The notes: generated by a model from the sequence alone, not told the origin. DNA of 4,446 nt from a virus (IMGVR_UViG_2778261058_000005:1-4446); one strand, 5' to 3'. Positions 1,345 through 3,886 are shown, counted from the first letter of the stretch. Translations and numbers: made by a program.

Positions 1345-1370
1345 TGCGGGTTATGCGGGTTAGCGGGTTA
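1345..1370. repeat. Three head-to-tail copies of (T)GCGGGTTA (1345-1353, 1354-1362, 1363-1370)
   Basis: Read directly from the sequence. Same motif as the spaced array at 1448-1500 but in inverted orientation. Confidence 0.65.
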
Positions 1371-1402
1371 TCTTCGCGTGCTAATTATCTTTTACTCTTT
1401 AA

Positions 1403-1415
1403 TATCAATATGTTA
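1403..1415. promoter_or_regulatory. IHF-like site TATCAATATGTTA (matches WATCAANNNNTTR) in the AT-rich spacer between the two repeat arrays
   Basis: Consensus match by eye. AT-rich context means chance matches are plausible. Confidence 0.25.
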
Positions 1416-1447
1416 AAAAACAACGCATTTAAATATCAGCCAGAATG

Positions 1448-1500
1448 TAACCCGCAAGACATTCAAAATAACCCGCAAACACCCCTCAAATAACCCGCAA
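1448..1500. repeat. Three copies of TAACCCGCAA at 1448-1457, 1469-1478 and 1491-1500 (spacing 21 and 22 bp, about two helical turns)
   Basis: Read directly. This is the reverse complement of the GCGGGTTA tandem motif. The array starts ~80 bp beyond the terL stop codon. Confidence 0.65.
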
Positions 1501-1579: not shown

Positions 1580-3241
1580 TTACACACCATCAAACGCCGC
1601 AAGCCGCTCTTTGTGGCTGTCGCTCATATCGAATGCAAATTCCTCATGCTCTGCCTGGAATGTGCCAAACGCCATCAGCGCCGCAACGCTCGGGTCTATC
1701 TTGTTGGATGATTTTTTCTTGTTCGGCTTGATATTGGCGTTCGCGTCACTCTGCATCACAACATTACTCATTGACCAGGCCAGCACCGGATCACCACGAT
1801 GCACAATCACCTTCCGGTTAACAAAAACTTCGAACGATTTCGCCGCCGGACTGAAACGAAGGTATGTTTGCGGGAACGGCTCCACCTCAAATCCTGCGCC
1901 CTGTAGCTGCGTCCTCAGGTGCGTGGCGTTCCATGTATCGAAGCCCACCAGCCTGATATTGAAATTTTCTGCATCTGCCATGATGTCATCACGGATACGG
2001 TCATAATCAATGCAGTCACCCGGTGTTGTGCGTATCCAGCCCGCCTTTACCCACTGGCGATAGATGGCGCGGTTTTTATTGGCGGGGTTCTGTAGCTGAA
2101 ATTCCGGCAGATAGTGACGGGAAACCAGCATAATCTTTTTACCGACCGGAAAGGCATAGCACACGCTGGAAATATCGCTGGTTGATGATAAGTCCAGCCC
2201 CGCGTAGCACTCCTGCCCGTATAAATCCGCCTCCGCGAACGTTCCGGCGCACTCCGCCCATGCACCGTTACCCATCCACGGCGTAGCCCCCTGACACCAG
2301 ATATTGAATCGCTTGGTGAGCATTTCCACCCACTGCGACGGAATACCCCGCGCTTTCTGGATGGTTGAGGCCAGTTTTTCACGATCGACGGAAACATCGA
2401 TATTGGGATTCGCCTTTATCCACATCGCCGGATCGTCAACCTCGCTTTCATCATCCAGCTCGTAAATCAGCACGAACATGGATTCGTTCACCTCTTCACC
2501 ATCCAGTATCTGGCAGCAATAGTCGTAGTGTTGTTTACAGGCTGAAACAACGTTGCTCCCCGATGTGGTGATGGCAAATAATAACCCCTCCGGACGCGCC
2601 CCCATTCCCAGTTCAAGCGCGGAATAAACCCCGTTGTCAGGGTGCAGGTGATATTCATCCACAATGGCAAGACTCGGGTTTGTACCTTCAATGGTTGCCG
2701 CTTTTGCTGCCAGTGGTTTTAACAGGCTGTTGGTTTTCGGGTGTATCACCTTGTGTGCCTGAATATTTACCCGCTTTCGTAACGGTCGGGATAAAAGGCA
2801 CATCTGACGCGCATCATCAAACACGATCCGCGCCTGATCACGACTCACGGCGGCGGTGTAAATATCCTGCTGCCCGTTTTCCATAACCAGAAACCAGTTA
2901 GCCAGGATAGCGGCGACCGTGGATTTGGCATTTTTTCGCGGTACTTCAATGAATGCGCTGGTGTATTTGCGCCGCCCGGTGGCCTTAACCTTAAAGCCCA
3001 GGATGCACGCAAAGGCGAACTGCTGCCACGGCTCCAGCTCAATGGGGCTACCGCGCATTGCGCCTTTTACGTGCGGGCACACCCTGGAAAAGGCAATAAA
3101 CCGCTCCACGACCTCCGGATCGAACGTGTAAAGGGGGTTTTCAAGGTCAGAAAAATACCGTTTAACGGCCTGTTTCAGTCGTTTACAGGCCGTAATTTTG
3201 CCGTTTTTTACGCCTTCTGCGTACTCATGCCAGGCGGTCAA
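1580..3241 (-). CDS. terL: Phage terminase large subunit (ATPase plus nuclease), 553 aa, TTG start
   Basis: ORF track 1580..3241; start codon is TTG (plus-strand CAA at 3239-3241). P-loop-like PRKNAKST (residues 101-108) and Walker B LAIVDEYH (191-198) in the N-terminal half. C-terminal nuclease motifs GLDLSSTSD (D350, D356), GDCID (D409, D412) and KID (D516). SD-like GAGGA lies 5 nt upstream of the TTG, inside the terS acidic-tail codons. Family assignment (HK97/Terminase_1-like) is from memory of typical sequences, not from a search. Confidence 0.9.
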   Translation of the reverse strand: MTAWHEYAEGVKNGKITACKRLKQAVKRYFSDLENPLYTFDPEVVERFIAFSRVCPHVKGAMRGSPIELEPWQQFAFACILGFKVKATGRRKYTSAFIEVPRKNAKSTVAAILANWFLVMENGQQDIYTAAVSRDQARIVFDDARQMCLLSRPLRKRVNIQAHKVIHPKTNSLLKPLAAKAATIEGTNPSLAIVDEYHLHPDNGVYSALELGMGARPEGLLFAITTSGSNVVSACKQHYDYCCQILDGEEVNESMFVLIYELDDESEVDDPAMWIKANPNIDVSVDREKLASTIQKARGIPSQWVEMLTKRFNIWCQGATPWMGNGAWAECAGTFAEADLYGQECYAGLDLSSTSDISSVCYAFPVGKKIMLVSRHYLPEFQLQNPANKNRAIYRQWVKAGWIRTTPGDCIDYDRIRDDIMADAENFNIRLVGFDTWNATHLRTQLQGAGFEVEPFPQTYLRFSPAAKSFEVFVNRKVIVHRGDPVLAWSMSNVVMQSDANANIKPNKKKSSNKIDPSVAALMAFGTFQAEHEEFAFDMSDSHKERLAAFDGV

Positions 3242-3581
3242 GCTCGTCCTCTTCCTCTGTTTCCGGTGGATTTCTGCGGCGGCTTACCGGGTCAAAACCC
3301 AGCAAAGAAGCCATTTTGATCATTATTCTTTCTGCGTCAGCCTTTGCGCTCAGGGCGGGGTTTCTGCTCTCACTGCCCTGACTGTTAACAATGCTGAATC
3401 CGCGCGTCGCAAGGTCTTCGACGGCTTTGCGGTATATGGAGTAGTTAACGCAATACAGCTCCAGATTGCTCCAGTCGGCGGGGGTAAGGTCTTCCCGCCC
3501 GGAAAGCTGGCGCGATTTTTCCTTCCACTGCCTGACCGCGATTTCATCCAGGTAAGCGGGGGCTTTTGGTGGTCTTGCCAT
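3225..3581 (-). CDS. terS: Phage terminase small subunit, P27-family-like, 118 aa
   Basis: Start placed at the internal ATG (3579-3581), giving the N-terminus MARPPKAPAYLDEIAVRQW..., which resembles the MAGRPPKP-type start I recall for P27-family small terminases. Conserved-looking core LTPADWSNLELYCVNYSIYRKA...LGFDPVSRRR and acidic tail ETEEEDELDRLA. Its 3' end overlaps the terL start by 17 nt. The 165-aa version from ATG 3720-3722 adds a non-protein-like extension and is treated as an overcall. Confidence 0.8.
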   Translation of the reverse strand: MARPPKAPAYLDEIAVRQWKEKSRQLSGREDLTPADWSNLELYCVNYSIYRKAVEDLATRGFSIVNSQGSESRNPALSAKADAERIMIKMASLLGFDPVSRRRNPPETEEEDELDRLA

Positions 3582-3700
3582 GTTCTTTTTTCGCCCAATT
3601 ATTTTCAAAAAAATTCCCGTGCACAAAAATTTGAGGAGGCGGTCGGTGTCCGGCAGGGACGGTTTCGTCCTGAAAACCTCCCCCACCCCCTCTGACAGCC

Positions 3701-3886
3701 TCACCAGCGATTGCGAAAACATTCCATGACCTCGCGGTCACGGTCGGTTAATCGCTTCGGTGTGGTGCGTTCTGTGCGCCCTGTCCTGTTGACTTTGTGC
3801 CCTGTCTCCTGTGTCTTCCATAAGTCACGCTGCCTTATCAGTCCACGTATCAGCCTGTTTTGCTCCTGTTCAGTCATCATCGCCAT
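3701..3886 (-). CDS. Possible small basic protein (61 aa) between HNH and terS
   Basis: C-terminal part of ORF-track entry 3701..4081, taken from ATG 3884-3886: MAMMTEQEQNRLIRGLIRQRDLWKTQETGHKVNRTGRTERTTPKRLTDRDREVMECFRNRW. Arg/Lys-rich. Overlaps the HNH 3' end by a few codons in another frame. No recognisable motif and no clear SD, so it could be a chance ORF inside the cos region. Confidence 0.2.
   Translation of the reverse strand: MAMMTEQEQNRLIRGLIRQRDLWKTQETGHKVNRTGRTERTTPKRLTDRDREVMECFRNRW

Follow-up and report, generated by a model that had tools for sequence, protein, structure and literature searches.

A probable detached unit of the Rep-dependent replication origin at the terminase end of a capsid-forming phage-inducible island

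The Rep proteins of SaPIs are self-loading initiator-helicases whose C-terminal winged helix binds iterons; 6-12 of these flank an AT-rich centre in the SaPI origin, which directly follows rep (PMC9371898). E. coli PICIs have been reported to share this organization, and such an origin was shown to be functional for EcCICFT073 (PMC6092414). Capsid-forming PICIs (cf-PICIs) are phage satellites of a widespread class that was described only recently, and no sequence-level description of their origins was found in the accessible literature. The closest architectural precedent for the locus presented here is provided by the ori and crr regions of P4, two clusters of one 8-bp repeat located kilobases apart, one of them directly 3' of the initiator gene. 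In the P4 record, crr (4291-4590) directly follows the alpha gene beside attP, and ori (9086-9809) is located 4.7 kb away from it. P4 replication reportedly needs both ori and crr, and the initiator, the alpha primase-helicase, is said to bind both. Distant iteron clusters also act in plasmid copy control, as exemplified by P1 incA and by the extra iterons of iteron plasmids.

The DNA analyzed here (IMGVR_UViG_2778261058_000005:1-4446), a stretch of 4446 nucleotides hereafter called the window, corresponds to one end of a ~14-kb island of the cf-PICI type (capsid-forming phage-inducible) inserted in a prophage terL gene. It is 98.5% identical over its whole length to strain ETEC4090, and between 1072 and 1579 it matches E. 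coli 042 (locus L003) at 100% identity. The gene order of the island begins with the integrase, HTH regulators, Icd-like, DUF4222, the DUF927 primase/helicase (Rep), SSB and PerC, and ends with capsid, protease, portal, connector, HNH, TerS (P27 family) and TerL; such a gene set defines a capsid-forming PICI (bioRxiv 10.1101/2022.09.08.507074). The terL gene of the island itself (1580-3241, minus strand) encodes 553 amino acids comprising TerL_ATPase and TerL_nuclease domains. It is distinct from the interrupted prophage terL, whose 3' part, a nuclease-domain fragment, occupies positions 328-1053 and whose 5' (N-terminal) fragment is found ~15 kb off, the two pieces being located at 15257-16000 and 31231-32259 in L003. 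The prophage hosting the island is of the HK97/P27 type, which makes the satellite helper-embedded, a situation already known for other PICIs (PMC10111431). Homology to uninterrupted phage terL stops at 1059-1071, and the apparent crossover core is about TTGGTAA(G/A)AA. Since the island is inserted inside the prophage terL, the repeat array described below sits in the non-coding end of the island, between its own terL and the att junction (~1054-1071), and 80 bp separate the terL stop codon from the start of the array.

Six exact copies of GCGGGTTA are found in this region within 156 bp, three of them abutting and three inverted; together with their leader (1318-1344), they form what we call unit A. 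The coordinates that the initial annotation had given for these copies, and the distance of 21-22 bp that it had noted between the inverted ones, are correct. The contiguous arm (1345-1370, plus strand) is made of TGCGGGTTA at 1345-1353, a second TGCGGGTTA at 1354-1362 and (A)GCGGGTTA at 1362-1370, all exact, with start spacings of 9 and 8. The spaced arm (1448-1500, minus strand) contains three exact copies reading TAACCCGCAA on the plus strand, at 1448-1457, 1469-1478 and 1491-1500, their start-to-start distances being 21 and 22 bp. No exact GCGGGTTA beyond these six occurs elsewhere in the window. With at most one mismatch, the motif is present 11 times in the window for 3.5 expected, a count that 0 of 200 shuffles reached, and the 32.5-kb context of E. 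coli 042 contains 13 exact copies for 0.8 expected. The initial annotation was therefore right in holding six copies to be beyond chance. It had also considered that the motif could be a dispersed REP-like repeat; this is ruled out because 12 of the 13 exact copies in the E. coli 042 context fall into two clusters, to which the enrichment is confined, and the 8-mer occurs at chance frequency elsewhere.

The two arms are separated by an AT-rich spacer (1371-1447), also recognised at the outset; this spacer is 77 bp long, has a GC content of 28.6% where the window as a whole has 51.7%, and constitutes a candidate melting region. It carries an IHF-like site, TATCAATATGTTA (1403-1415, plus strand), whose perfect match to the consensus WATCAANNNNTTR we confirm; two such perfect matches are present in the window for 0.18 expected. 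The stretch 1400-1420 is the least stable 20-mer of the window (dG -19.5 for a mean of -28.8 and a standard deviation of 2.9). On the other side of the contiguous iterons, and abutting them, lies a conserved leader, AATTTTTCGTATATATATACAAAACAG (1318-1344), which contains (TA)5 at 1327-1336 and represents a second candidate unwinding element: 1318-1338 is the second least stable 20-mer in the window. Adjoining the third abutting iteron, the box TCTTCGCGTGCTAA (1371-1384) hardly varies among all A units of the GCGGGTTA class; it might extend the contact with Rep or serve in priming.

Searches for other kinds of elements were negative. The region had no match in a plasmid collection, an Rfam scan of the whole window (E <= 1) returned no RNA family, no sigma-70 promoter or intrinsic terminator was found in a scan of 1000-1700, and no DnaA box occurs in the non-coding region. 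An open reading frame of 59 amino acids crossing the array (1314-1493) was rejected as coding, given the 1- and 2-bp indels observed among relatives; likewise, the spacer region is considered non-coding because about half of its columns vary between relatives and its indels are not multiples of three.

The second cluster of the E. coli 042 context lies just past the stop codon that ends the DUF927 gene (L003 24443-24565). This unit B also contains six exact GCGGGTTA: two of them abut, and 44 bp of AT-rich spacer separate these from the other four, which are inverted and spaced by 11, 21 and 21 bp. This corresponds to the design of unit A in the opposite orientation. The two clusters (16275-16427 and 24443-24565) are 8.0 kb apart in L003. 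A rep-adjacent array of GCGGGTTA was likewise observed in L001 (28932-29054), L005 and L006, and the pair of units A and B is present in ETEC4090 as well as in islands inserted at other chromosomal sites (L005, L006).

A survey of 80 IMG/VR loci encoding Rep relatives indicates how the two units are usually arranged. The usual origin is a double unit of ~310 bp directly 3' of rep, composed of B then A and terminating in TATATATATA. In unit B, an AT-rich spacer generally separates two abutting iterons from four or five inverted ones that are spaced; in unit A, the spaced iterons come first and are followed, across an AT-rich spacer, by two or three abutting copies and then by (TA)5. The two units adjoin each other 3' of rep in about 50 of the IMG/VR loci and in the prototype EcCIEDL933, where both units lie between rep and ssb and no distal copy exists, and their internal geometry is that seen in the window. 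In a split subset, B stands alone after rep and A is found 7.7-9.2 kb downstream at the island end, its geometry unchanged: the inverted copies start at +102, +123 and +145 from the first abutting copy, identically in all distal and rep-adjacent A units. The lineage of the window belongs to this arrangement, with A ~8 kb from rep, beyond the whole packaging operon, adjoining a cos-like block and the att arm. Like the PICI/SaPI origins (PMC6092414; PMC9371898), unit A has short iterons that face each other across an AT-rich centre, here with three copies on each side. It differs from them by its position ~8 kb from rep and across the packaging operon; unit B, and unit A of the islands where it accompanies rep (type I), do lie immediately 3' of rep. 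A further difference concerns composition, the PICI/SaPI origin being a single iteron/AT/iteron unit and that of the cf-PICI family a B plus A assembly of 11-12 iterons with two AT-rich spacers and a terminal (TA)5.

In islands with B alone beside rep and with sequence coverage of the distal region, a matching distal A is present, L029, L030 and L084 excepted. In these three loci, rep is followed by B only, and neither A nor (TA)5 occurs within the next 10 kb; the islands may extend beyond the DNA examined, or B may suffice by itself. L105, which appeared as a B-only island lacking A, is uninformative, an extra gene following terL before the contig ends, and the apparent distal cluster of L080 was discarded as a false positive caused by a coding Gly/Asp-rich repeat. 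L007 possesses three units, namely a complete B plus A of the GGGACAAC type beside rep (26215-26500) and an extra distal A (14131-14262) whose iterons differ at one position (GGGACAAG).

The relation between these iterons and the initiator provides the main argument on function. The only Pfam match of the island Rep is DUF927. The protein is homologous to the 'Pathogenicity island protein' chain of PDB 8TCH (E = 4.5e-14) and matches more weakly the 'Active helicase' chain of PDB 5DGK; an AlphaFold (AF2) model built with 30 homologues reached a pLDDT of 52, with values below 50 for the C-terminal domain, too low to confirm a winged helix, and a PDB profile search with an alignment of this domain gave chance matches only. 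Five iteron classes could be distinguished among relatives: GCGGGTTA, GTGGGTTA, GAACCAAC, GGGACAAC and TGGGATAA. The last 95 residues of Rep share an identity of 0.86 within a class and 0.44 between classes, and the helicase core can reach 0.99 identity between iteron classes. The closest pair of C-terminal domains between classes (68% identity) corresponds to iterons one base apart, which argues that the C-terminus of Rep is the specificity determinant. The iteron of the window is the one found beside rep in the same island, and iterons covary with Rep class by class, recombinants excepted. In this respect too the locus resembles the PICI/SaPI systems: its initiator is homologous to the 'Pathogenicity island protein' helicase and its iterons track the Rep C-terminal domain. 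Outside this domain, residues 1-140 of Rep, in an alignment of L002, L003, L004, L009 and L010, behave as a mosaic module shared by Reps of the DUF927 type and of the P4 alpha-like type (D5_N/Pox_D5). These N-terminal ~140 residues are almost identical in EcCIEDL933 and EcCICFT073, the remainder of the two proteins being unrelated.

The split layout with matching distal arrays occurs in two of the five classes. The second case is illustrated by E. albertii (L010), in which TGGGACAAGT is present both in B (3660-3785) and in the distal A (5952-6056), beside a homologous cos-like block; a scan of species-representative genomes with the leader pattern retrieved one locus only, in E. albertii. The flanks of the distal units are homologous across classes (73% over 132 bp) although the iterons differ, which argues that the distal iterons are kept in step with Rep. 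Other iteron classes likewise have (TA)5 at the outer end of their unit A (e.g. L080, L007). The IHF site behaves differently: its TATCA and TT are invariant among the A units of the GCGGGTTA class, and a perfect consensus is present in 15 of 69 origins over all classes against 4% of background windows, so that the match is conserved inside the GCGGGTTA class and not across iteron classes.

The initial annotation had also suggested looking for the array in related elements. It is present in 25 distinct distal A units, drawn from 48 loci and with pairwise identities down to 74%, in which the iteron cores are nearly invariant. In this set, 44 columns of the iteron cores are invariant and 4 variable, and (TA)5 has 10 invariant columns and none variable; the spacer has 39 invariant and 38 variable columns, and the other flanking columns are divided 34 to 34. 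The iteron cores are far more conserved than their surroundings (Fisher p = 1.3e-7), abutting copies 1 and 2 being invariant among 23-25 distinct related units. The array is a real, non-random and selectively maintained site, predicted to organize a nucleoprotein complex. Of the three kinds of assembly site listed in the initial annotation, the iteron origin is the one that gained ground: the same iteron occurs directly 3' of rep, the arms are placed on both sides of an AT-rich spacer as in PICI origins, and the iterons covary with the C-terminal domain of Rep. The tracking of the Rep C-terminus by the iterons, the matching distal arrays in two split classes and the selective conservation support this reading: 1318-1500 is, in our judgment, probably the detached unit A of the Rep-dependent origin of the cf-PICI, and the 8-mers are putative iterons of the DUF927 Rep.

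Cassette exchange complicates this picture. A terL-anchored comparison indicates that rep-ori cassettes differ between cf-PICIs whose TerL proteins are 99-100% identical. An intact distal GCGGGTTA unit is retained together with other rep-proximal iterons in at least eight loci (L004, L093, L099, L113, L123, L124, L134 and L139), the non-matching rep-proximal origins being apparently complete; in L007, the mismatch between the distal unit and the rep-proximal iterons is partial. The breakpoints, located by comparing recombinants with L092, fall among the initial ~140 codons of rep on one side and shortly 3' of unit B on the other, and the distal unit is therefore left behind as an orphan array. 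It follows from the loci with a non-matching Rep that the array can persist without a cognate Rep in cis. Orphan arrays may be recent recombinant passengers, or they may have a function that is Rep-independent or exerted in trans. The whole distal unit could also be a dispensable relic, half of an origin that a rearrangement stranded at the end of the island and that travels with the packaging and cos module. The cassette swaps excluding the distal unit and the mismatched loci speak for this, and EcCIEDL933 does function as a cf-PICI without a distal unit (bioRxiv 10.1101/2022.09.08.507074). We nevertheless hold a relic to be unlikely: the iteron cores and (TA)5 are almost invariant in units in which about one column in two varies in the flanks and the spacer, and B-only islands with the distal region covered almost always keep the matching distal half with its (TA)5.

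The initial annotation had envisaged a packaging site, and the immediate neighbourhood of the array does contain a cos-like sequence. Positions 1215-1317 form a diverged second cos-like block of the phiP27/HK97 type, which is not part of the repeat and is 70% identical over 91 bp to positions 12010-12110 of L004. Within the L004 block, 12020-12056 is identical at 37 of 37 positions to phiP27 DNA overlapping the annotated cos-site, between HNH and terS, and the block matches the physical end of Burkholderia phage phi1026b as well, at 93% identity. The candidate canonical cos of the island is found elsewhere, in the gap between HNH and terS (3596-3705), where AAAAATTTGAGGAGGCGGTCGGTGTCCGG precedes a C-rich tract. 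This candidate can be aligned to the cos region of phiP27, with 70% over 54 bp (E = 2e-4). The terS frame (3225-3722) is open over 165 codons, 118 of which are annotated in RefSeq (3225-3581); the upstream extension would cross the candidate cos region. At its other end, terS overlaps terL by 17 bp (3225-3241).

A cos-like block of the phiP27 type adjoins the array in every distal module, and inverted repeats around an IHF site recall the R3-I1-R2-R1 layout of lambda cosB. The array could on these grounds be a cosB-like platform for TerS or an accessory site for the adjoining block. The proximity to packaging sequences thus stands, the cos-like block at 1215-1317 being next to the array; the array itself as a terminase site is not supported. 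Type I islands have A beside rep, far from any cos, and the array is also present in islands devoid of terminase genes (L004, L005, L007 and L010). The cos blocks of L004 and L007 are 95% identical, yet their iterons are unrelated and follow the Rep class. The array moreover stands on the HNH side of the cos-like block rather than on the terS side, and the cosB region of EcCICFT073 has other repeats, AACCGGACAT (PMC6739421). The Rpp-type cosB of classical PICIs was rejected as a model, the cos regions of EcCICFT073 carrying AACCGGACAT repeats and its origin GGTAGACAG-type iterons. Compared with lambda-type cosB and with the Rpp-dependent cosB of EcCICFT073, the window shares inverted repeats around an IHF-type site near a cos-like sequence, but its repeats follow Rep and not the terminase and lie on the opposite side of cos. 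We regard a packaging role of the array as very unlikely.

Toward the junction, the island ends in an att arm (1054-1214 with the junction) that is specific to terL-inserting islands: up to its end at ~1214, it is common only to islands located at the prophage terL insertion site. The arm carries a second perfect IHF consensus, TATCAATCGTTTA, at 1096-1108, two copies of GCAATACAC at 1140-1148 and 1152-1160, and further copies of ATACA(C/G) within 1140-1206. The GCAATACAC and ATACA(C/G) repeats are candidate arm-type sites of the integrase. A recombinase arm-site cluster had been among the initial proposals for the array as well. The repeats would then be arm-type sites for the island integrase or excisionase within attP, and the location of the array in the non-coding island end, 275-430 bp from the junction and with an IHF consensus nearby, is in keeping with it. 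However, the module is common to five insertion sites (prophage terL, yifB, clpS/cspD, dinD and yejO), and the att arms of other insertion sites, where compared, are unrelated to that of the window. The motif is absent from the integrase-side arm, its twin array is located 7-8 kb from att, and the site-specific arm ends at ~1214, before the array begins. We give this recombinase reading practically no weight. The island end appears as a cluster of cis-acting sites, in which the att arm, the cos-like block, (TA)5 and unit A are neighbours.

If unit A is a detached origin unit, a possible course of events can be outlined. Once the island has excised, Rep would bind both arms of unit A through its C-terminal ~95 residues, possibly with IHF bending the spacer at 1403-1415. 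Opening of the least stable duplex, in the spacer centre and (TA)5, would follow, and the helicase would load. Unit A could serve as a second initiation site or as a partner of B through Rep-mediated looping, in the manner of P4 ori and crr. That both clusters would be needed in cis, as reported for P4, receives indirect support from the matching A carried by B-only islands with distal coverage, apart from the three loci mentioned above.

Rep binding to unit A could also be negative. The array would in that case contribute to copy control or handcuffing, titrating Rep or pairing with B to limit initiation, which would agree with the presence of the same iterons as in the rep-proximal cluster, kilobases away, and with their selective conservation. 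In most relatives, however, A adjoins B and belongs to the origin itself; it also bears the weakest duplex and a (TA)5 that does not vary in the family, and an initiation element therefore fits better than a sink. Satellites amplify upon induction, and we know of no requirement for tight copy control in these elements. A negative role consequently seems improbable to us. Iteron plasmids such as P1 (incA) and R6K, with its alpha and beta origins and gamma iterons, do resemble the island in having distant initiator-binding clusters that could loop; the island differs by its helicase-type Rep, by being an induced satellite and by a detached unit that keeps the two-sided layout of an origin.

The analogy with P4 extends to the composition of the clusters, each of which mixes abutting direct and inverted copies in P4 and in the island, and to the location of one cluster next to att. 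The arrangement is reversed, the attP-side cluster being the rep-proximal one in P4 and the att-side cluster the distal one in the island. The initiators differ as well: P4 uses the alpha primase-helicase and the island a DUF927 Rep that is not alpha-like, and the iteron sequences are unrelated. A BLASTP comparison of the island Rep with P4 alpha gave E = 0.011 over 54 residues. The Reps of L004 and EcCICFT073 are P4 alpha-like (41% identity).

A bolder proposal would make unit A, rather than B, the true initiation site, with a Rep-iteron complex next to cos coupling replication to packaging or conferring packaging specificity on the island, and with orphan arrays allowing replication or packaging in trans by the Rep of a co-resident island. 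It draws on unit A holding the only (TA)5 and the spacer that IHF may bend, and we consider it a long shot; were its trans component true, satellites would exploit one another through orphan arrays.

With unit A retained as the probable detached part of the origin, a plan common to the whole family can be proposed for cf-PICI origins, in which B is joined to A and (TA)5 closes the assembly; their iterons fall into five classes that go with the final ~95 residues of Rep. In one lineage, the two parts of this origin are separated by the entire packaging operon, a layout otherwise known from P4 ori and crr. In this lineage, an att arm, a second cos-like site and an origin half follow each other in this order within ~450 bp, and rep-ori cassettes are exchanged independently of them. 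The finding would gain in importance if the detached half were necessary, or functionally coupled to the adjoining cos-like site. If the detached half is required, minimal replicons or PICI vectors built from rep and the adjacent origin would fail in the split lineage, and the Rep-iteron classes would predict which islands cross-replicate.
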